A stretch of 64,000 nt of DNA, from assembly GCA_000146465.1 (NCBI GenBank), contig CP001950.1; one strand, 5' to 3'. A model generated the notes under the pieces. It ran no database searches. It was not told where the DNA came from and saw only the letters and a list, made by a program, of their open reading frames with translations. The position numbers and the translations under genes are program-made. Below are positions 655 through 41,557 of this stretch, piece after piece (the first letter of the stretch is position 1; every line of letters starts with the position of its first letter).

Positions 655-1173
655 TTATTCTTTTTTAGATTGACTTTCTAAGAACCTGTTCTGCACTTCC
701 ACCACTTCAGCACTTGACGTGCACTTGGAGTACTCCTCAAGAAGATCTTCATTTAACTTGTAGAATTCATTTCCATAATTAAATTCGTTAAGAATCTCAT
801 AGGCTTCCTCTTTGAAGCCACAGATATACAGCGAAGCACTCAGTGCCTCGGCACAGTTCAGCTTAAAAGGCTTGCCATAGTTTACCGGGTTTGCTGCAAC
901 CATAAACGGAAGAAGCCTGTTGTGCTTCCTTGGAAGCCTTTTAAAGTCCACAGAGTCTAACTGTGCCCATGAACAGTCTATAAGCCCTATTCCAAATCTT
1001 TCTATGACGTCTCTGTCTGCAGGAGAGATAGACTGATCTGCATCTGGAGAAAGAACCACTCCTTTGAAGTTTTTATTCTTTTTTATTGGCTCAATCTTGT
1101 TCTGTTTGATAAGTTTCTTCCCAGAACACTTTTTTGGATCGCACTGCTCAAACTCGTAGATTATCTTCCTCAT
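655..1173 (-). CDS. TSR3: Tsr3, 18S rRNA aminocarboxypropyltransferase (ribosome biogenesis)
   Basis: CDPKKCSGKKL, DCSW and AANPVNYGKP...LNCAEALSA motifs typical of Tsr3. The ORF-track start is TTG; the first ATG (MRKII) is at 1173 with GGG/CCC just upstream. Confidence 0.8.
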   Translation of the reverse strand: MRKIIYEFEQCDPKKCSGKKLIKQNKIEPIKKNKNFKGVVLSPDADQSISPADRDVIERFGIGLIDCSWAQLDSVDFKRLPRKHNRLLPFMVAANPVNYGKPFKLNCAEALSASLYICGFKEEAYEILNEFNYGNEFYKLNEDLLEEYSKCTSSAEVVEVQNRFLESQSKKE

Positions 1174-1204: not shown

Positions 1205-2404
1205 CTATGCAGAAGAGACAGAAAGGTTCTTGCTATCCCTTTCCATACTTTCGTCAGGCTCCAGAATCCCCTCAACCATTTTTCTGAAGTTCTCGTACCC
1301 TATCTTGTAGATATTTCCCTTCTCTTGGTAAAAAGATGGCTCTCCCCCAACAGCAACCACCCTTGCATCCTCCTTTCTCTGTATTTCTTTGTACACATCA
1401 AACGAAACATCCTTCGTCGAAACCACCGTTCTTATGTCGAAACTCGAATATTCAAAGAAAAGAAGCTCGGCAAGAATCTGAGGAAGAGGACGGGCAGAGA
1501 CAAAGTAGACTGTCTGCTTTGTTCTATGGAGCTTCACAACAGAGTCGTATAGACGTGTTATTCGGCTTTTAAGTAGCCTATCTACACTGTAGAAAAGAGG
1601 CGTGCATGTAAACTTGAACCTTTCTGAGCTGTTAAATATCCTTTCAAACCGATGGTATTTGTCCCTCTTCAAGTTCCGAAGTGTAGTTGCTTCATGGCCT
1701 TCTCCTCCGTCTTCCTCACCCAAGCTCCCGAGGGTGATGATTCTAGAGCAACTGTTGTCGATGCAAAATAGAATGTCTCTGATCTCGGAGATTCTTCTTG
1801 ATGTCTCTTCCTTTGCCTGGCATCTTAGCCCTCCAATTCCAAATATGGGATCAAGATCAATCACAAATACACTTCGGACACTAGTCAACCCATCCTTGAT
1901 TTCGCACACCTCTTTGGTGGTTATTTCAGGGAGCTCAATTAGAAGTGACTTTATCTCTTCTTTTGTGTCGCTTGCTTTGTTGAATTCCCTCTTGATCATC
2001 TTGTCTCTTCTTCTGTCTGCTTCAATCTTAGATATTATAAATGAGTTTTCCGTATCTTCAAACATCTTCTCGTAATTTTTCATGCATTGGAAGTGCTTCT
2101 TCACATCCTCAAATTTCTCCCTCCTAATCAGGCCCATCTTATAGAGGTAGTAATATGTTGAGTACACATATTGATTGATGTTCTTCCTGTCCTCAATGGA
2201 GGGAACGAGTTCATCTGCAGGTGCCTCTACAGCTTCAATCAACCTTACTATAGCAGTGTTCCTTTTTGTCCCAAGTAAGCTTCGGACTTGGTCCCTTAGA
2301 GGCTGCTGGATCATCTTCGTTCTTATCTGCTCCTTGTTGTCATTTACAAATGCTTTGTCCTTGCATCTTTCCAAGAGATCCGAAATGTCCATTCCCTTTT
2401 CCAT
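1205..2404 (-). CDS. Hypothetical protein, 399 aa, with a vWA-like segment (VFVIDLDPIFGIGG) but no canonical MIDAS motif; family not recognised
   Basis: Long ORF with ATG start and a CCC motif upstream; I have no confident homology. Confidence 0.4.
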   Translation of the reverse strand: MEKGMDISDLLERCKDKAFVNDNKEQIRTKMIQQPLRDQVRSLLGTKRNTAIVRLIEAVEAPADELVPSIEDRKNINQYVYSTYYYLYKMGLIRREKFEDVKKHFQCMKNYEKMFEDTENSFIISKIEADRRRDKMIKREFNKASDTKEEIKSLLIELPEITTKEVCEIKDGLTSVRSVFVIDLDPIFGIGGLRCQAKEETSRRISEIRDILFCIDNSCSRIITLGSLGEEDGGEGHEATTLRNLKRDKYHRFERIFNSSERFKFTCTPLFYSVDRLLKSRITRLYDSVVKLHRTKQTVYFVSARPLPQILAELLFFEYSSFDIRTVVSTKDVSFDVYKEIQRKEDARVVAVGGEPSFYQEKGNIYKIGYENFRKMVEGILEPDESMERDSKNLSVSSA

Positions 2405-7821: not shown

Positions 7822-8006
7822 TCTGATTAGGGGCTTTGCTGTTATTTGCAATTGATCCTATCCTAGAAACCTGATTCTTTGTGATTGAGGTATTTGCAGC
7901 AGGCAGGCCAAGATGAGTCAAAACAAACCAATGTGTGATGTGATCTCCTTAAGAACAAATAAAAGAAAATTGACATCGATATAATAGGAAGCCGAGAATA
8001 AGGGTT

Positions 8007-11000
8007 ATGACGGATTTGATGGGGAGATTTCGGCACATATCGAAGGAACAGAGAAGAAGATACCCTCCCAACATTATAAGGAACCAGAAGTACAAGTGGT
8101 ATACGTTTATATTTGCGGTTCTTAGGCTGCAGTTCAGCCACTTCTTCAATACATTTCTTTTTTTTGTGTGCATGACGCAGTTGAAGAAAGAGTATCTTGT
8201 GTCCTCTCTTGTGGCTTCTGTCGGGCCCTGGGCGATGGTTCTCATGTTTTCACTTTTCAAAGAGGGAGTGGAGGACTACAAGAGGTATGAGAGAGACAAG
8301 GTTACTAACAATCAGTTGTACGCAAAGCTCACAAGCCAGGGGTTTGTCCGGGTGCCCAGCTCTCGGATAGAAGTTGGAGATCTGATCCTTCTGGAGAAGA
8401 ATGAGCGTGTTCCTGCAGATATGGTTCTCTTGAAGGCTTCAGACGTGTCTGGAAATGTGTTTGTAAGAACAGACCAGCTGGATGGAGAGACGGACTGGAA
8501 GTTGAAGTTGTCGATTCCAAGGATACAGTCAGCAACATTTGACGAGGTTCGGAGATTGAGTATACTTGCAGAGCAACCAAACAAAAACATATACTCATTT
8601 GTAGGGAAGATTAAGATAGGAAGATTTTCACCGGAAGAGCTTGAGGAAGTTGAAGAAGAAGATGGAGAGAAAGAAAGGTTTGCAAGCTGGCTGGAAAGGT
8701 TTTTAGAGTTTGACTTTGGTAGAGAGGAGTCGGAAGCTGACGAGATGGAGAAGCCTAGAGACGTCTCTTGGGTCTATTCCTCGTCTACCCAGAGCAGTGA
8801 GGAGAATGGGTCTCGAGAGAACAGTCTGAAGACCCCTAGCGAGGTAAGTGAGAATTCTGTCTCTTCGGAGACGGCAGAAGGCCTTGAAGTGGGAAACGAA
8901 AGCAACATAGGAAGCGAAGCAGGGGACATTGATGCAAGTTTGAGAGACCAAGAGGGAGGAGAGAACATTGCTGAGGTGCTTAACTGCGAGAATATGCTAT
9001 GGATGAATACAGTTGTTGCAACATGCTCAGTTCTTGGGTGTGTTGTATACACGGGAAAGGATGCAAAAGCAATGCTCAACACCACTCAGCCAAGAAATAA
9101 GATAGGAAAAATAGAACTGGAGTTGAACGGATATATGAAGGTGCTAGGGATTGGATGCATGGTGCTTGCGGGAGTGTTTACATACATGCGGGGGCTTGAA
9201 TCAAGACCCGACATTATATTTATCCGGTTTCTTGTGCTGTTTTCGTCGGTGATACCTATTTCTTTGAGGATCACAGTGGATTGGGCGAGATACTGCTATG
9301 GGCGATACATAAGCAGGGATGAGAAGATAGAAGGAGCAATGATGCGATCAAATGGACTGCCTGAGGAGCTTGGGAGAGTGTCGTACTTCCTTACAGACAA
9401 GACAGGGACACTGACCAAGAATGAGATGGAAATGAAGAAAATACATCTTGGGACGATATGTTACACAAAGGAGCTAAACAGGGAGATCAGTAAGAATCTG
9501 GCCAAGGTGCTTAACAGCAGAAGCGATGGAAAAAAGGTGTTTTCCAGAGGTAAGAAGAACATCAACGCAAGGGTATACGACCTGGTCCAAGCACTTAGTG
9601 TTTGCCATAATGTTACACCTGTTGTTTCTGAGAACGAGGTAAGCTATCAAGCGTCAAGCCCCGATGAGGTTGCAATTGTCCAGTGGACAGAGTGTGTGGG
9701 AATGAAGCTATATAAAAGGGATCGGTCGACGATAGTTATAAGAGACCCTCTGAATGATGAACAAGAGTACCGGGTGCTCTATACTTTTCCATTCACCAGC
9801 GAGACAAAGAGAATGGGGATTATTGTAAGGTACAACGAGGAGATAATATTCTTTTTGAAGGGGGCTGATGTGGTGATGAAAAAGATAGTAAAAGGCAACG
9901 ATTGGGTTGAGGAAGAGGCAGATAACATGGCCCGGGATGGGTTAAGAACACTTGTCATAGCAAAGAAGGTTCTCAGCAAGAAGGAGTTTGAGACCTTTGA
10001 GGAAATGTACAACAAAGCGTGGATGAGTCTAGTCGATAGGGCTGAGGCAATAAACAAAGCAATGGAAACCATTGAGAACGACATGAGTGTTCTTGGGATA
10101 ACAGGGGTTGAAGACAAGCTTCAGGAAGATGTTAAGGTTACACTCGAGAATCTAAGGAATGCAGAAATGAAGATTTGGATGCTTACAGGAGACAAGATAG
10201 AGACAGCCATTTCTATTGCAAGGTCCTCGCGGATCTTCCATAGAGGAACCTCATACCTGGTGATCAGCAATGCAAGTTCTGTGGGAGATGTTAAGACAAA
10301 GCTTGACCTGCTCCGCGGCTCTGGATACAACTCCCTAGTTATCGACGGCCAAAGCTTGTCGTTTGTAATTGAGAGCTGCATGGACGAATTTATTGAGGTT
10401 GTCTCGGGGTTAGAATCTGTGGTAGGGTGTCGGTACACTCCCACACAGAAGGCGGCAGTTGCAAGAGAATTGAAGAGAAAGACCAAGAAATGTGTGTGCT
10501 GCATCGGAGATGGAGGGAACGACGTCTCGATGATAACGGAAGCAAATGTGGGAATAGGAATAGTGGGGAAGGAGGGAAACCAAGCATCGCTGGCTGCAGA
10601 CTTCAGTATAAATAAGTTTTGCCATGTGTCGGACCTTCTCTTCTGGCACGGGAGAAATTCGTATCAAAGAACAGCAAAGATAGCCCATCTGATAATTCAC
10701 AGAGGGCTTACCCTTACTGTGATTCAGGCAATTTTCTGCTCTCTCATCTACTTTGTCCCGGTGGGTCTTTTCCGAGGAGAGCTTCTTATGATGTTTATAA
10801 CAGTCTACACCTTTCTTCCAATATTTTCCATCATATGCTCAAGCGATATAAGCAGAAGCGTTGTCGTCAAGTTTCCAGAGCTCTACAAGGAACTGGTGGA
10901 GAACAAGCTCCTGTCGTTTAGACATTTTTCGGTATGGATCCTGATATCATTTTACCAGGGAACAATCATGATGATAACATTCTATCTTCTGAAACAAGAG

Positions 11001-14133: not shown

Positions 14134-14201
14134 AGGGCTGTCACCTTAGGATGTTTGAACTTTATAATAAATCAGCTTCTATGTCTGAAAATGCAAAAGG
14201 A

Positions 14202-14274
14202 CGTTCCGGGTGGGACTCGAACCCACGACCTCAGCTTTAGGAGAGCCGCGCTCTACCAACTGAGCTACAGGAAC
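14202..14274 (-). tRNA. tRNA-Arg, anticodon CCU
   Basis: The reverse complement folds as a canonical cloverleaf. Acceptor GTTCCTG/CCGGAAC (one G-U pair), D-arm GCTC-AGTTGGTA-GAGC, anticodon arm CGGCT-CTCCTAA-AGCTG, variable loop AGGTC, T-arm GTGGG-TTCGAGT-CCCAC, discriminator G. The ORF track translates it as GGTRTHDL. Confidence 0.85.
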
Positions 14275-14364
14275 TGTACCATGGCAGGGGAGGTTCCATC
14301 ACGCCGACTCTGCCTGGACGGGGATTCTAAAGGATACATTGTGCCACCAAACACTATCCCCAGG

Positions 14365-15645
14365 ATGGCAAAGAACAGTAACATAGCAATCCATAGTCAT
14401 GTAAAGTCCCTGGGCCTAGACAATCTTGGGAGGCCTCTGGACGTGCCGGATGCGGTGGTTGGACAGGAAGATGCACGAGAAGCTGCAGGTCTCATAGTAG
14501 AAATGGTTAGGACAAAGAAGATGTCTGGTAGAGCAGTACTTATATCCGGGCCTGCAGGGTGTGGGAAAACTGCTCTTGCTGTTGGAATCAGCGAGGAGCT
14601 AGGCCCTGGAACTCCATTTACCTCGATGAGTGGTAGCGAGATATACTCCAGCGAAGTGAAGAAGACCGAGGTCCTTGAAGAGGCTCTGAGAAGATCAATT
14701 CTTGTGCGGATGAGAGAATTGAAGGATGTTTATGAGGGAGAGATAGTTGATCTTCGGATTGTGGATGAGGAAAATCCATTGAGTACTCATGGTAGAAGAG
14801 TTAAGGAGATATTTGTTACTTTAAAGACAAGCAAGGAGTCAAAGAAACTTAAGCTTGCACCATCTCTCTATGAGCAGATAGATAAGCAAAGGATAGTCAA
14901 TGGGGATGTTGTTTACATCGAAGTCAATTCAGGAGTTATCAAGAAGTTAGGGAGGAGCGAGGCTCACATGAATGACTTTGATCTTGAAGCCGAAGCTTAT
15001 GTCCCTATTCCAAAGGGAGAAGTTCTGAAGAGAAAAGAGGTGGTACAATCTGTAACGCTTCACGACTTGGATATGGCAAATGCCCGGCCTTCTGGACAAG
15101 ACATGCTTTCGCTTGTTTTCCGGATACTGAGTCCCAAGAAGACAGAAATAACAGAAAGACTAAGAAGCGATGTCAACAAGATGGTGAACGAATATCTTGA
15201 GAAGGGGAATGCCGAGATTGTTCCTGGAGTTCTCTTTATTGACGAGGTCCATATGCTTGACATTGAATGCTTCACCTTCCTCCACAAGGTCATCGAGTCT
15301 CCGCTCAGCCCAACAATAGTATTTGCCTCTAACAGAGGAATGGCTCCAATTAAAGGAAGTGGAGGGCTCCTCGGGCCCTTTGGAATTACCAAGGACTTGC
15401 TTGATAGAGTTGTGATTATCAGTGTAAAGAGCAACTCAAGCGAGTCAAACAGAAAGATTATCGAGATGAGGTTGAAGGAAGAAGGGCTTGAGATGGATGA
15501 CGACGGACTTGTGTTTCTTGCAAGCTTGAGCTCTTCAAGGGGGCTGAGATATTGCATAAGTCTTATTCCTCTGCTGAAAACATACGGAAGGAGTGTTGGA
15601 GTTAGGGATGTGGAGGAGGTGAGTGAATTGTTCCATGACGGTTAA
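14365..15645 (+). CDS. RVB1: RuvB-like 1 (Rvb1/TIP49a) AAA+ helicase
   Basis: HSHVKSLGLD, KKMSGRAVLISGPAGCGKTALA (Walker A), SEIYSSEVKKTEVLEEALRRSI closely match Rvb1. The start is chosen at the ATG with CCCC upstream; the alternative ATG at 14281 lies only 6 nt from the tRNA. Confidence 0.8.
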   Translation: MAKNSNIAIHSHVKSLGLDNLGRPLDVPDAVVGQEDAREAAGLIVEMVRTKKMSGRAVLISGPAGCGKTALAVGISEELGPGTPFTSMSGSEIYSSEVKKTEVLEEALRRSILVRMRELKDVYEGEIVDLRIVDEENPLSTHGRRVKEIFVTLKTSKESKKLKLAPSLYEQIDKQRIVNGDVVYIEVNSGVIKKLGRSEAHMNDFDLEAEAYVPIPKGEVLKRKEVVQSVTLHDLDMANARPSGQDMLSLVFRILSPKKTEITERLRSDVNKMVNEYLEKGNAEIVPGVLFIDEVHMLDIECFTFLHKVIESPLSPTIVFASNRGMAPIKGSGGLLGPFGITKDLLDRVVIISVKSNSSESNRKIIEMRLKEEGLEMDDDGLVFLASLSSSRGLRYCISLIPLLKTYGRSVGVRDVEEVSELFHDG

Positions 15646-37526: not shown

Positions 37527-37711
37527 TCCTATACAATAAACCTCATTCTTATCCATAATAAATTGATTTCCCTTATTGTGTTTCCCCTTTCTCCTATTGA
37601 TCACAAAATAATATCCTATCAACTAATATATAATCTGTTTTGATTTCTGTTTAATTATCCTAATATGGAAAAGATGTTATATATAAAGTAAGACCCATTC
37701 TACCCTACCAA

Positions 37712-39379
37712 ATGGATTTCAATCAACTTAAAAGACTTACGGAGTATGCAAAGATAATTGAAGGTATCGGCGACAAAGAAGCCGTAAAACACCTAGAAAG
37801 TGCTATTGAGTCCTTTCTTAAAGAAGTTGAAAGCCTCTTGGATAAAGTTACTAATCTTGGAGGGAATTTGGAAAAAGCTGCAGAAGGAGCCGATAGTGAA
37901 GGGATTTGCCAAAATGCCTGCCAGAAATTGACTAATCTATCTGGTCTTCTTAAAAAAGCTAAGGAAAGTTGTTGTGGAAAGGGGCCTCACAAGTGTACTA
38001 CCTTATTCAAGAGTATTGATGATGTACTCAAGGAAGTCACCGAAGAAGGTCTTGATAACACACTTGGAGGACTCAAAGATTTCCTCGGAATCTTTAAGGG
38101 GGATGAAACATTAGGAGAGGATATTCGTGAAGAGGTAAAAGCAACTACAACAACTATTGAGAAGTTTTTGGAATCTAAATTTGATGATAAATTAACGGAA
38201 GAAACTCTTAGTTGCTTTAAGAAATGCTTTAGTGGAACAGTATGCGAAGAGCAATGCGCCTCCGATTTTTCAGAGGGTCTTCAGGGAAAAGTAGACCAGT
38301 TAAAAATATTGGTTGACGAATGCCCAAAAGAAGAAGTTAAGGGTCAACTCACTGAACTTTTTGAACAAGTTTGTGCTTTGTCTAATAACATTCAGGAGAT
38401 GGCCGCTGCACCTGAGAATGTTTTTAAACATTCTTGTGGACAACTTGCTAATTTTTCTCAAGTAAGTGAAGAATTCCGTTCGGAACTTAGAAAGGTGAAA
38501 GGAACCTTGAAGGATATAAGCGAAAAACTTATTGATTTAGAAAAGAAAAGTGAAGAAATTAGAAAACTTACAAGAAAGGGATTTTTTGAAAGACTTCAAG
38601 ATTTTTACCAAAGACTCAAGGAAAATATACTGTCGATAAACACTGGAAGTTTATATGGAAATCTATGCTTGGCATTCTTGGGAATTCTGGTCATACAGAT
38701 CATCATTTGGAGCTTTGGAAGGGAGGATGAAGAGACTGATTTCCAAAAAGCATGGAATACGACAGTATACTTCATAGCTGTAGTGGTAAGTATTATATAT
38801 CTCCAGTGGCTGGCGAATAAGGGATATAAAAGTAGCAGTGGCATTGGAGATACTCTAAAGAAAGAGTGGCCAACCATTTTGAGCACAATTCCGATGATGA
38901 TAGGAATTCTGAATTTTGGGCCAATAAAGAGCAGCATTTATGCTTTGACAATGGCTGCTACTGCTGTCGTGATGCTTTATGCACAGAATCTTGTGAGAAC
39001 AAACAATATGTCTAAAAAGGGGATGCTCTTAGTTGGGGTCGGGAACTTGATTATAATTTTGGCATACTTCACTGGGCCTGAGTCGTCTTTTATGCCTACT
39101 ATTAGTGGTCCTAACTACCGTGCGTATACTGCACTTATCATATTCGTCATTCTTCTCCTTATCATATCATACCTGGAACGAAACCTCCCAAAGGAGGAGG
39201 TATTGAAAGAAGGAACACCGGGAACGAAGGGACTTGCCTATTGGATTAGTTACGCATTGTTCGCATTAACGCTGATCACGGTTACTTGGGTGTCTTACAT
39301 GGCAGGAAGTGACTACCATCAACTTTATGGTTCCAACAATAGCACTAAGCCTTTAAACGACGATTTCTTTAATTCATGA
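37712..39379 (+). CDS. Hypothetical 7-TM membrane protein with a ~300-aa helical, Cys-containing N-terminal domain
   Basis: Seven hydrophobic segments in the C-terminal 250 aa. The N-terminal domain has paired cysteines (ICQNAC, CCGKGPHKC, CFKKCFSGTVCEEQC, DECP); no family recognised. Confidence 0.45.
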   Translation: MDFNQLKRLTEYAKIIEGIGDKEAVKHLESAIESFLKEVESLLDKVTNLGGNLEKAAEGADSEGICQNACQKLTNLSGLLKKAKESCCGKGPHKCTTLFKSIDDVLKEVTEEGLDNTLGGLKDFLGIFKGDETLGEDIREEVKATTTTIEKFLESKFDDKLTEETLSCFKKCFSGTVCEEQCASDFSEGLQGKVDQLKILVDECPKEEVKGQLTELFEQVCALSNNIQEMAAAPENVFKHSCGQLANFSQVSEEFRSELRKVKGTLKDISEKLIDLEKKSEEIRKLTRKGFFERLQDFYQRLKENILSINTGSLYGNLCLAFLGILVIQIIIWSFGREDEETDFQKAWNTTVYFIAVVVSIIYLQWLANKGYKSSSGIGDTLKKEWPTILSTIPMMIGILNFGPIKSSIYALTMAATAVVMLYAQNLVRTNNMSKKGMLLVGVGNLIIILAYFTGPESSFMPTISGPNYRAYTALIIFVILLLIISYLERNLPKEEVLKEGTPGTKGLAYWISYALFALTLITVTWVSYMAGSDYHQLYGSNNSTKPLNDDFFNS

Positions 39380-39413
39380 TTAACAATAAACTTTATTCAT
39401 GATTAACAATAAT
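39374..39413. repeat. Short tandem direct repeat (ttcatgattaacaataa, 2 copies) spanning the stop codon of the preceding gene
   Basis: Seen directly in the sequence. Confidence 0.5.
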
Positions 39414-39666
39414 AAAAAATCTTTTTGTTTAGAATAAGACCTTACTTCTCCTTCTCAAGAAAGTGATCAAAGTAATTAAAATACAATTCTTTTATGAGTT
39501 GAAAGCGTATAGAATAGACAAAACTTCTTTCAAGTGGAATTCTCTTCCAGGCTCTATATTTAATAATATGAGCACATTGGATGGAATGTTTGGAGTCCTT
39601 TCATATCTTGTGCCTGTTCTCTATATAAGGTAATCCTTATATTAGAAATCAAAACAAACCCCAAGG

Positions 39667-41040
39667 ATGTTTGGAATTATGCTTGGCACTGTTTTTTTTT
39701 CAGGTTATGCTATGGCCGAGGCAGTCCACATGCAAGACAGCACTCTACTTGACAATCTCAAGATTGTTCCGAGTCCGTCTATGATTGGAATGGTAAGGGA
39801 CATGAAGAGCATTGTTTCGTATGTATCTGAAGATGAGAAGTTTGATGGGGAGGGAATTAAGATAAAGCATGATGGAAGAATGTTTGTTGTTTCAAAAGCT
39901 GAGGATGTTGAAGGAGCTGTAAACATTCTGAAGAAGTATCCTGCACCGACAGAGGAGGTTATTAAAACCATAAAATCCTCTGATGGAAAAGGAATTGAGG
40001 GAAACTTTATCATATACTTCCTGGACAATTCTGGATACAAGGAGAAGCTTGTAGGGAGTAGAGAAGGGTTGAATGTGTTTGTGTCTACTGATCCTGCCCT
40101 TGCATCTCTTTTGGATGCTTCTATTCCAGGAATATATGGATATAATGGAAGGGATAGGCTTTCGTACAAGTTCCCCTTTAGTGATAAGAATGCCACAAAA
40201 ATCTTTTCACTGACCAATCTTCCGATATTTGGATTTACTTCTGCAGAGAGCATTTCGTTGTATAGGTCATTGGATGGAACCATTTTCTATATTTTCTTTA
40301 ATCCATCCAGCAGTTTGGATGTCCTTAATGGGTACTCTGGAGTTTTGGATGACTTTAGGTACGATGTTCGAGTGATACTGATTCCAAGTGTCAAGGACGG
40401 CATCAATCTTGAGGACTACGGGCTAACGGAAAAAGATCTTCCAGGATGCATATCTATCAGCGAGGACGGAGGGAAGTATATCCTAAGGAATGTGACCAAG
40501 GAAAGCATTTCGGAATTTGTCAAGGATGTGTTGGGAGGAAAAGCTGAGGCGTTTTATAAATCCCAGGAGGAACCAAAAGATAACGGCAGTAAAAATGTTA
40601 AGGTGGTTACTAGAAACAACTCCAAGACATACCTTGGGGATGTTTCCAAGGACAGACTGGTTGTATTTGGAACCGAGAGATGCCCGCATTGCATCCGAAT
40701 TAAGCCGACACTTGAAAAGTTAGGGGAGATAGTAAAGAACAATGCAGATGACAAGGTGTTTATTGGATACTGTGATGTTGATATGAACGACATGAATGAC
40801 GTTGAGATTCGCTTTGTTCCGACCATTCTACTTTATAAGGCTGGAGAAAACAAGAGCATTCAGTACTCTGGTGGAGAAAGAAACCTCTTGAATTTAATTA
40901 CCTTTATCCGGGAGTCTGGAAGCCTAGGTGTTGATCTTTCGAAGTTTGCGGGTCAGGAAGATGAATCCGAGAAGAGGAAGTTTGAGGCTGGCAAGGAGGC
41001 CACTGGGTCTTGGGGAGAAGATGCAAGGGCAGAACTCTAA
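39667..41040 (+). CDS. Protein disulfide isomerase-like ER protein (signal peptide plus thioredoxin domain)
   Basis: N-terminal signal-like MFGIMLGTVFFSGYAMA; C-terminal thioredoxin fold with a CPHC active site. Confidence 0.65.
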   Translation: MFGIMLGTVFFSGYAMAEAVHMQDSTLLDNLKIVPSPSMIGMVRDMKSIVSYVSEDEKFDGEGIKIKHDGRMFVVSKAEDVEGAVNILKKYPAPTEEVIKTIKSSDGKGIEGNFIIYFLDNSGYKEKLVGSREGLNVFVSTDPALASLLDASIPGIYGYNGRDRLSYKFPFSDKNATKIFSLTNLPIFGFTSAESISLYRSLDGTIFYIFFNPSSSLDVLNGYSGVLDDFRYDVRVILIPSVKDGINLEDYGLTEKDLPGCISISEDGGKYILRNVTKESISEFVKDVLGGKAEAFYKSQEEPKDNGSKNVKVVTRNNSKTYLGDVSKDRLVVFGTERCPHCIRIKPTLEKLGEIVKNNADDKVFIGYCDVDMNDMNDVEIRFVPTILLYKAGENKSIQYSGGERNLLNLITFIRESGSLGVDLSKFAGQEDESEKRKFEAGKEATGSWGEDARAEL

Positions 41041-41077
41041 TGAATTAAATGTAAGTCCTTGGAATCCTTTTTTGTAT

Positions 41078-41557
41078 ATGTCCCTTCTGAAGATGGATAT
41101 CCCAAGCATCATTCTTAGGCTTTTAACAGATGGAATTGTGGATGGAGAGTATCATGATTCTTTGAGTTCTCTAAATGAGCTCCTCAGGCCTATACAGTAT
41201 GAAGCCGTTGGATGGCCAGATGGATCATGTATTGTTCTAAAGGATAACCATAGTTCATATCCTCCTGATTCTAGAACAAAAGAAATAGAGGATGTGTTCA
41301 AAAAAGTTGTACGGGGGATTTCTGTTTCTGGAGAAGTGGTAGATATGCTTATTAGAGAGAGATGGATGGAAAGCACCTCAGAAGGATACCGATTGAGTAA
41401 AAGGTCATTAGTGCAGCACAAAGACTTTATTCTTGGATTGGGAGAAGGATACACAGTATGTGATGTTTGTGGATTTCTTAGATCTGAGAATGAAGTTCAT
41501 AAGTTCTGCAAGGAACTTTTAGAAAGCGAAAGAGGCTTTGGAAGAAAAAAGAATTGA
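41078..41557 (+). CDS. Hypothetical protein with a C-terminal Cys/His cluster (CDVCGF...HKFC)
   Basis: The ORF overlaps the PDI 3' end; the start was placed at the first ATG after the PDI stop. The ATG at 41093 with CCC upstream is the alternative. Confidence 0.3.
   Translation: MSLLKMDIPSIILRLLTDGIVDGEYHDSLSSLNELLRPIQYEAVGWPDGSCIVLKDNHSSYPPDSRTKEIEDVFKKVVRGISVSGEVVDMLIRERWMESTSEGYRLSKRSLVQHKDFILGLGEGYTVCDVCGFLRSENEVHKFCKELLESERGFGRKKN

Follow-up and report, generated by a model that had tools for sequence, protein, structure and literature searches.

Eint_091560 of Encephalitozoon intestinalis as a chromosome IX core member of the InterC (DUF1686) family, with a seven-helix membrane module and a divergent N-terminal half

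The stretch of DNA analyzed here, referred to as the window, comprises 64,000 nucleotides of chromosome IX of Encephalitozoon intestinalis (GenBank contig CP001950.1), and the gene in question is Eint_091560, an open reading frame (ORF) on the plus strand. It is nearly certain, at the least, that Eint_091560 is the E. intestinalis chromosome IX core member of the InterC (Pfam DUF1686) multigene family, an orthologue of EHEL_091560 of E. hellem and EROM_091540 of E. romaleae and the positional counterpart of ECU09_1550 of E. cuniculi. The analysis shows a protein of two modules, in which a fast-diverging, all-helical N-terminal module of about 310 amino acids (aa) is joined by a long helix to the first transmembrane (TM) helix of a conserved C-terminal seven-helix bundle. 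An earlier note, made from the letters of this DNA alone, had read the gene as an unclassified 7-TM protein with a helical, cysteine-containing N-terminal domain of about 300 aa. Its outline of the architecture holds, with an N-terminal domain that is hydrophilic and modeled as helical at low confidence, but the label "unclassified" is wrong.

The ORF at 37712-39379(+) runs uninterrupted from ATG to stop over 555 aa, as the earlier note had it, and the single ORF that overlaps it, antisense and 110 aa long, is without support. The 555-aa product and Eint_091560 of E. intestinalis ATCC 50506 share 100% identity; this protein is recorded under four accessions and on five contigs and has no variants in its 90% cluster. 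Residues 345-533 match PF07937 (DUF1686) at 118.7 bits (E = 3.7e-34) across profile positions 3-181 of 182, well above the Pfam gathering cut-off of 25 bits. DUF1686 is matched by all 12 aligned family members, any other Pfam family by at most two of the 12. Moreover, hydropathy and AlphaFold2 (AF2) place seven C-terminal TM helices behind a hydrophilic N-terminal part without a signal peptide, the layout published for InterC. The gene for a PDI-like thioredoxin protein is immediately preceded, on the same strand, by a DUF1686 gene in each of the four Encephalitozoon species: Eint_091560, EHEL_091560 (locus L001), EROM_091540 (L003) and ECU09_1550 (L004), the last being catalogued as an interC gene. 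In a neighbor-joining tree of TM domains, Eint_091560 groups with EROM_091540 and EHEL_091560, and the E. cuniculi copies form a clade of their own. The gene, its Pfam domain, the family and the chromosome IX core copies are all already in databases and the literature, and the family assignment carries no information on function.

InterC, the family that corresponds to DUF1686, is described in PMC4704409 and PMC10158259 and has been named and catalogued since 2016. Together with InterAE, InterB and InterD it makes up the four multigene families tied to Encephalitozoon chromosome ends; its proteins lack a signal peptide, carry five to eight TM helices toward the C-terminus and are predicted to keep the N-terminus in the cytosol (PMC4704409). 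E. cuniculi has 23 interC-related coding sequences, 12 of them in chromosome cores and 8 of these 12 on chromosome IX; ECU09_1530 and ECU09_1550 are named in the supplementary gene list (PMC4704409). The same study reports frameshifted pseudogenes, expansion and decay of the family in subtelomeres, and a difference between interC1 and interC2 at the 5ʹ end (PMC4704409). InterC has also been reported in E. intestinalis and E. hellem (PMC4355639, PMC10158259), and published AlphaFold and DeepTMHMM models of the family (PMC10158259) give a picture that agrees with the present one. Copy numbers differ between species, with expansion in the subtelomeres, and E. intestinalis has the smallest InterC repertoire.

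Relatives are confined to the genus in an exhaustive single-sequence phmmer search against 1.84 billion representative proteins. The search returned 18 clusters at E<=1e-3, nearly all of which span the membrane half only; the 16 with species names are all from E. intestinalis, E. hellem, E. romaleae or E. cuniculi, and the other two come from SRA assemblies. Conservation among microsporidian genomes, which the earlier note had pointed to as a check, therefore has two sides: the gene is kept in four Encephalitozoon species, but phmmer found no named relative outside the genus. A word-indexed homologue search recovered only the query itself from the full-length protein and nothing from the TM domain alone or from the family alignment, a limit of that tool on this query rather than evidence of absence, given the 18 phmmer clusters.

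The membrane domain is the better-defined half. Kyte-Doolittle (KD) averages over 19 residues mark five strong hydrophobic segments (312-338, 349-370, 435-457, 466-494 and 507-530) plus a weaker pair near 386-403 and 409-427, and AF2, run on the membrane domain alone, models seven helices (pLDDT 79.8, pTM 0.78), in line with the seven hydrophobic helices that the earlier note had counted. The full-length AF2 model, built from a 12-sequence family alignment, is all-helical with a mean pLDDT of 65. Seven hydrophobic segments are present in 17 of 17 family members (mean KD 1.26-2.23). Within the module, conservation is highest in TM2 and TM3 and lowest in loops 2, 5 and 6. The polar, aromatic and small residues conserved across the family lie mainly in TM2 to TM5 (T350, Y353, Y363, W366, W386, P394, Y410, Q425, G444 and N445); Y353 is invariant, as is M433 in loop 4. 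No charged residue within the membrane is conserved among the 17 members. The tail motif that follows TM7 takes the family pattern G-[RK]-[DE]-Y-x-x-[LMVF]-Y-G and is found in most members.

As modeled, this seven-helix bundle is without counterpart among solved structures in the Protein Data Bank (PDB). In Foldseek searches of the PDB neither model found a match: the best E value was 0.33 for the TM model, whose TM-scores reached at most 0.26, and 0.095 for the full-length one. At the sequence level, the PDB returned nothing but keratin along with designed coiled coils (E>=0.23) and a single TM fragment of nAChR (E = 0.046), all set aside as non-specific. Assignments to G protein-coupled receptors (GPCRs) or rhodopsin-like proteins, Lung_7-TM_R, GPR107/108, TMEM120 and PAQR are without profile or PDB fold support over the bundle. 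The earlier note was thus right to see no recognizable transporter or GPCR family, none being among the Pfam matches; its proposed distant homologues (TMEM120, lung-7TM-receptor and GPR107/108) find no backing in profile or PDB fold comparison.

The N-terminal domain is hydrophilic (34% K+E+D+R) and begins MDFNQLKRLTEYAK, with no hydrophobic N-terminus. Of the 13 cysteines in the protein (66, 70, 87, 88, 95, 168, 172, 178, 182, 204, 221, 242 and 319), the first 12 lie in this domain, where cysteine makes up 4.0% of residues versus 2.0% in long ORFs of the window. Three CxxxC pairs are observed in the domain versus 0.42 expected (P about 0.006), and cysteine pairing within Eint_091560 exceeds chance. 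The paired cysteines emphasized in the earlier note are all present, including the second cluster, CFKKCFSGTVCEEQC, but the family does not share them. In E. romaleae and in E. hellem the orthologue has two N-domain cysteines, and 11 of the 12 in Eint_091560 are not conserved in relatives. The cluster 1 positions are occupied by cysteine in no aligned relative, single chance matches aside, and only C172 of cluster 2, within an F-x-x-C-F motif, recurs in several paralogues. Judged from the alignment, the cysteine motifs are specific to E. intestinalis.

The domain as a whole is, on profile evidence, a divergent yet family-wide homologous module: a profile of paralogue N-domains from which the two orthologues had been excluded scores it at 21 bits, against a maximum of 7.8 bits in 500 shuffles. 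Other identities were considered for it and rejected. Weak Pfam matches (UBA_HOIP at E=1.7e-4 but below the cut-off, Syntaxin at 0.012, Bacillus_HBL, Spectrin and others) were put down to similarity among helical proteins of like composition, because none recurs in other family members. In small Tims, the spacer of the twin-CX3C motif is about 11-16 residues; a small-Tim-like reading of C168-x3-C172-x5-C178-x3-C182 was discarded on the spacer of 5, the lack of the motif in orthologues and a pLDDT below 50. A disulfide-bonded, secreted or lumenal cysteine-rich domain, as in fungal CFEM-7TM receptors, was dismissed on the missing signal peptide and the lack of a conserved cysteine pattern, and no CFEM or other cysteine-rich family appears among the Pfam matches of Eint_091560.

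Charge bias points to an N-in orientation. Lysines and arginines number 11 on the N-side loops versus 4 on the opposite side in Eint_091560, 12 versus 4 and 10 versus 6 in the two orthologues, and 157 versus 102 over all 17 family members. Because this bias is joined by the absence of a signal peptide and by 310 hydrophilic residues before TM1, the N-domain probably lies in the parasite cytosol, with TM1 as a signal anchor and an extracytosolic C-tail; the published prediction of a cytosolic N-terminus (PMC4704409) agrees. The cysteines specific to E. intestinalis would therefore sit in a reducing compartment, and structural disulfides in the N-domain are unlikely.

The opposite orientation would make Eint_091560 an exposed variant surface protein, its N-domain outside the cell, stabilized by disulfides and evolving fast at the host interface in the manner of the subtelomeric antigen families of protozoan parasites. 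Much about the family and about this protein would suit such a role: subtelomeric expansion with species-specific copy numbers, very fast divergence concentrated in the N-domain, 12 N-domain cysteines at twice the background frequency and with non-random CxxxC spacing, and a YxxPhi-like tail motif that would then face the cytosol. The analogy with var, vesa and vsg was itself proposed by the authors of PMC4704409. The exposed orientation is nonetheless an unlikely account of this protein. There is no signal peptide to carry 310 hydrophilic residues across a membrane ahead of the first TM helix, the 11 to 4 charge bias and the published topology both favor N-in, and the orthologues, with two cysteines each, lack the residues that would form the disulfides. 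Furthermore, within-species variation is small, with no variant among the four accessions and five contigs of Eint_091560 and differences at only 3 of 439 residues between E. hellem strains.

Between species, the locus changes rapidly. Eint_091560 is 31-34% identical to its three positional counterparts, compared with 61-87% for six syntenic neighbors, and by this measure the InterC locus is diverging about twice as fast as the genes around it. The TM half is 33-42% identical to the counterparts and the N half 23-29%, and the counterparts range in length from 439 to 591 aa. Within E. cuniculi, the TM halves of ECU09_1550 and ECU09_1530 are 92% identical and their N halves 29%; for ECU09_0540 and ECU09_0530 the figures are 100% and 43%. 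Since paralogue pairs share their TM halves but not their N halves, these comparisons suggest that gene conversion or recent duplication has acted on the 3ʹ half of interC genes only, which fits the published 5ʹ-end divergence of interC1 and interC2.

This rate of change bears on two further explanations. The first takes the 7-TM module for a divergent transporter or channel, for solutes or lipids, with a housekeeping role, and the N-domain for its regulatory cytosolic extension. Conserved polar and aromatic residues in TM2 to TM5 (T350, Y353, Y363, W366, Q425 and N445), retention of the locus in four species, and an intact ORF with little within-species variation are all compatible with it, yet it is improbable: no such family is among the Pfam matches, no intramembrane charge is conserved, identities of 31-34% beside neighbors at 61-87% are atypical of housekeeping genes, and subtelomeric copies of the family multiply and decay, some members being pseudogenes. 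Confident placement in a known housekeeping family is what the earlier note had named as speaking against its own reading; this applies in part only, InterC being known but not housekeeping. The second explanation, that Eint_091560 is a nearly neutral leftover of a multigene family, without important function and open by chance in a compact genome, has less still to recommend it and is very improbable. Fast divergence, the spread of orthologue lengths, the frameshifted pseudogenes in the family and the small InterC repertoire of E. intestinalis are what relaxed constraint would produce. Such a relic would not be expected to keep an intact ORF at the same position in four species, with TM-core residues and motifs conserved family-wide, an N-domain whose homology is still recognizable across the family, and a CCC start context and AATAAA in place.

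As to function, a lineage-specific membrane scaffold or receptor-like protein is a tentative proposal, with a chance clearly short of even. In this proposal TM1 would act as a signal anchor: the N-module would remain in the cytosol of the parasite, across the membrane from the short loops and the C-tail. The constant 7-TM module would provide membrane placement and possibly a pocket for a small ligand or lipid; its conserved polar and aromatic positions in TM2 to TM5 point to specific packing or a ligand-binding site rather than a simple anchor. The variable N-module would probably set partner specificity. Family diversity could then arise by divergence of the 5ʹ half, the 3ʹ half being kept uniform in paralogue pairs by gene conversion or recent duplication. 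A bolder version is more speculative and unlikely: DUF1686 would be a seven-helix fold unlike the characterized 7-TM families and the basis of an Encephalitozoon-specific receptor- or channel-like system, with an exchangeable N-module that tunes the host-parasite interface, a membrane half homogenized by gene conversion, and the CxxxC pairs specific to E. intestinalis acting as a redox or metal switch.

Taken as a whole, the account of an InterC core member with two modules, a cytosolic N-domain and a scaffold- or receptor-like role is likely the best explanation available, and several points weigh against parts of it. ECU09_1550 belongs to a separate, E. cuniculi-specific clade, so its correspondence with Eint_091560 is given as positional and not as strict orthology. 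The N-domain model is of low confidence (pLDDT 50-70 over its nine helices). The non-random CxxxC pairing and the even count of 12 cysteines would also suit an oxidizing compartment. In several paralogues the positive-inside signal is weak or reversed; 3 of the 17 family members show the opposite bias and one is tied. The tail motif resembles a YxxPhi sorting signal, which would have to face the cytosol to act as one; because there are seven TM helices, a cytosolic C-tail conflicts with the N-in topology. Finally, function, location and topology are all predictions from computation, and a literature search by locus tag for Eint_091560 and its orthologues found no expression or proteomic data.

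Table 1. Positions of features of Eint_091560 and its flanks in the window, and of the E. cuniculi InterC pair in its own locus.
Feature	Position	Strand	Basis or remark
Complete coding sequence of Eint_091560	37712..39379	+	555 aa plus stop; from ORF list
Variable N-terminal helical domain, aa 1-310	37712..38641	+	AF2, nine helices, pLDDT 50-70; no signal peptide
Cysteine cluster 1 (C66, C70, C87, C88, C95: ICQNAC ... CCGKGPHKC)	37907..37996	+	Sequence
Cysteine cluster 2 (C168-x3-C172-x5-C178-x3-C182)	38213..38257	+	AF2 pLDDT <50 at residues 171-182
Long helix, aa 248-308, from N-domain into TM1	38453..38635	+	AF2 full-length model (H248-308), low confidence
Conserved seven-helix membrane module, aa 314-539	38651..39328	+	AF2 pLDDT 79.8, pTM 0.78; hydropathy
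TM helices 1 to 7 of the AF2 model	aa 314-335, 343-374, 378-399 (kink at P394), 408-429, 435-453, 467-490, 503-539
Pfam PF07937 (DUF1686) match	38744..39310	+	aa 345-533, 118.7 bits
Conserved tail motif G-S-D-Y-H-Q-L-Y-G (aa 532-540) after TM7	39305..39331	+	Family alignment
AT-rich 5ʹ intergenic region	37527..37711	.	GC 27.6%; CCC motifs; synteny break point
AT-rich 3ʹ intergenic region	39380..39666	.	GC 28.9%; AATAAA at 39385-39390
E. cuniculi InterC pair ECU09_1530/1550	L004 3581-5269 / 8001-9776	- / +

Eint_091560 stands at a synteny breakpoint. Downstream, the order PDI-like, short ORF, DUF5093, YIF1, Nop, Sua5, Tfb5 (where annotated) and XPG is common to the four species. Upstream, the neighbors are Per1, TPR and an amino-acid transporter in E. 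intestinalis; an aminopeptidase, DHFR, TS and SHMT in E. hellem; and a 399-aa gene, Tsr3, an inverted InterC copy and DUF5097 in E. cuniculi. The E. romaleae contig begins at EROM_091540, so that the upstream comparison covers the other three species. The earlier note had placed the gene in an endoplasmic reticulum (ER) and secretory neighborhood, and PIG-A, Per1, the PDI-like gene and YIF1 are indeed nearby, interleaved with a DEAD-box helicase, the amino-acid transporter, TPR, Nop56/58 and Sua5. Of the two flanks, however, the downstream one (PDI-like, YIF1, Nop, Sua5) alone is conserved, and the Per1 neighbor is specific to E. intestinalis. Because upstream neighbors differ between species, the neighborhood carries no functional meaning and was rejected as functional evidence; in part it is an accident of rearrangement in E. 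intestinalis.

In E. cuniculi the InterC pair is immediately preceded by the 399-aa gene and Tsr3, whose E. intestinalis orthologues (71% and 88% identical) are found at window positions 1208-2389(-) and 664-1173(-), 37 kb from Eint_091560 and in opposite orientation. This placement implies a putative inversion of about 37 kb relative to E. cuniculi, covering roughly window positions 655-37526 (the Tsr3-Per1 block), with its right end in the 5ʹ flank of Eint_091560 (37527-37711) and its left end at about 1-655. The DUF5097 gene, which separates the two E. cuniculi InterC copies, sits just past the left window end in E. intestinalis, and the rearrangement history probably involved more than one event. 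AT content in the window peaks at 100-450 (GC about 0.20), between ATG9, just outside the window, and Tsr3, at the left end of the putative inversion. A tblastn search with either half of the protein found no second InterC copy or relic in the 64-kb window; the nearest paralogue, Eint_091090, is about 7 kb past the left end, roughly 45 kb from Eint_091560. The inverted-pair arrangement described for internal loci of E. cuniculi, which is not a strict criterion, is absent here.

The immediate flanks fit the earlier description of a CCC start and AT-rich surroundings. The 5ʹ (185 bp) and 3ʹ (287 bp) intergenic regions, with GC contents of 27.6% and 28.9% versus 41.2% for the window, are among its ten lowest 200-bp windows. 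CCC motifs stand at 37694-37696 and 37703-37705, 7-18 nt 5ʹ of the ATG, and the AATAAA follows just 3ʹ of the stop codon. A 21-nt direct repeat (39369-39389, TTAATTCATGATTAACAATAA, and 39392-39412, TTTATTCATGATTAACAATAA; spacing 23 nt) duplicates the last codons, stop and AATAAA. Conservation with E. hellem and E. romaleae extends over the final 25 or so nucleotides ahead of the PDI-like start.

InterC loci of the other species show duplications and assembly breaks of their own. EHEL_091560 exists as two identical 439-aa copies (L001 6001-7320 and L002 6001-7320), both with the same upstream aminopeptidase gene and small ORFs. One lies inside chromosome IX beside the PDI-like gene and the other 15-28 kb from a chromosome end beside three DUF2463 (InterD) genes, so that the duplicated copies link the core locus to a subtelomeric segmental duplication. 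EROM_091530 (L007 8001-9179) and EROM_091540 (L003 357-1982) are adjacent genes, of which the first lies where one contig ends and the second where another begins; the E. romaleae assembly breaks at the InterC locus, as expected for a repeated or rearranged region.

Two further observations concern other genes of the window. A tRNA-Arg(CCT) gene at 14202-14274(-) lies inside the 5ʹ end of ORF 14191-15645(+), whose first 30 or so codons (MQKDVPGGTRTHDLSFRRAALYQLSY...) resemble a translated tRNA gene; the true start of this ORF is probably a later Met (MAGEV...). ORF 40961-41557(+), of 198 aa and without a Pfam match, shares 80 nt with the 3ʹ end of the PDI-like gene. Because its counterparts in three other species are shorter, at 153-167 aa, its true start is probably an internal ATG near 41096.

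The main value of these results lies in a corrected label, not in a new kind of protein. InterC is confined to a genus of human-infecting parasites with the smallest known eukaryotic genomes, which keep little that is not needed. Eint_091560 and InterC are a reasonable target for localization and expression studies because the locus is kept in four species despite diverging about twice as fast as its neighbors, the two halves evolve separately and the bundle matches no solved fold. The retention of the locus in four species, the roughly twofold divergence, the family-wide homology of the N-domain, its unconserved cysteines, the missing PDB fold match and the synteny breakpoint are new details that are useful to InterC researchers and no surprise to a specialist.

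Among known systems, the closest is the rest of InterC itself (ECU09_1550, ECU09_1530, ECU10_0450, EHEL_091560 and EROM_091540). Eint_091560 shares with these proteins a DUF1686 match far above threshold, a hydrophilic helical N-part followed by five to eight C-terminal TM helices (seven in Eint_091560) without a signal peptide, and, in four species, the chromosome IX core position directly 5ʹ of the PDI-like gene. It is single at its locus, whereas E. cuniculi has the inverted pair ECU09_1530/1550 and, in E. romaleae, another contig ends with a second copy, EROM_091530. Its N-domain is nearly unalignable with those of the orthologues, and its 12 N-domain cysteines are not shared by the E. romaleae and E. 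hellem orthologues.

InterD, or PF09591 (DUF2463), is likewise a genus-restricted, subtelomere-expanded family of multi-pass proteins, mostly with seven predicted TM helices, and adjoins one copy of the E. hellem orthologue (L002). However, InterD proteins are about 260 aa long and lack the long N-terminal domain, and their genes are confined to subtelomeres. Homology between the InterC and InterD membrane domains was rejected (hhalign probability 0.14%, E = 0.42).

The var, vsg and vesa families resemble InterC in being multigene families that are tied to recombination sites as well as chromosome ends, have some copies elsewhere inside chromosomes, evolve fast and differ in copy number from species to species. 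They differ in having no sequence or fold in common with InterC, whose variable module is predicted to be cytosolic and not exposed. InterC also shows no evidence of switching or mutually exclusive expression and almost no strain polymorphism. With the eukaryotic 7-TM families (GPCRs, Lung_7-TM_R/GPR107/108, TMEM120, PAQR and insect-type 7-TM channels), Eint_091560 has its seven membrane helices in common. PAQRs and insect-type receptors are inserted N-in/C-out, the same orientation as that predicted for Eint_091560.

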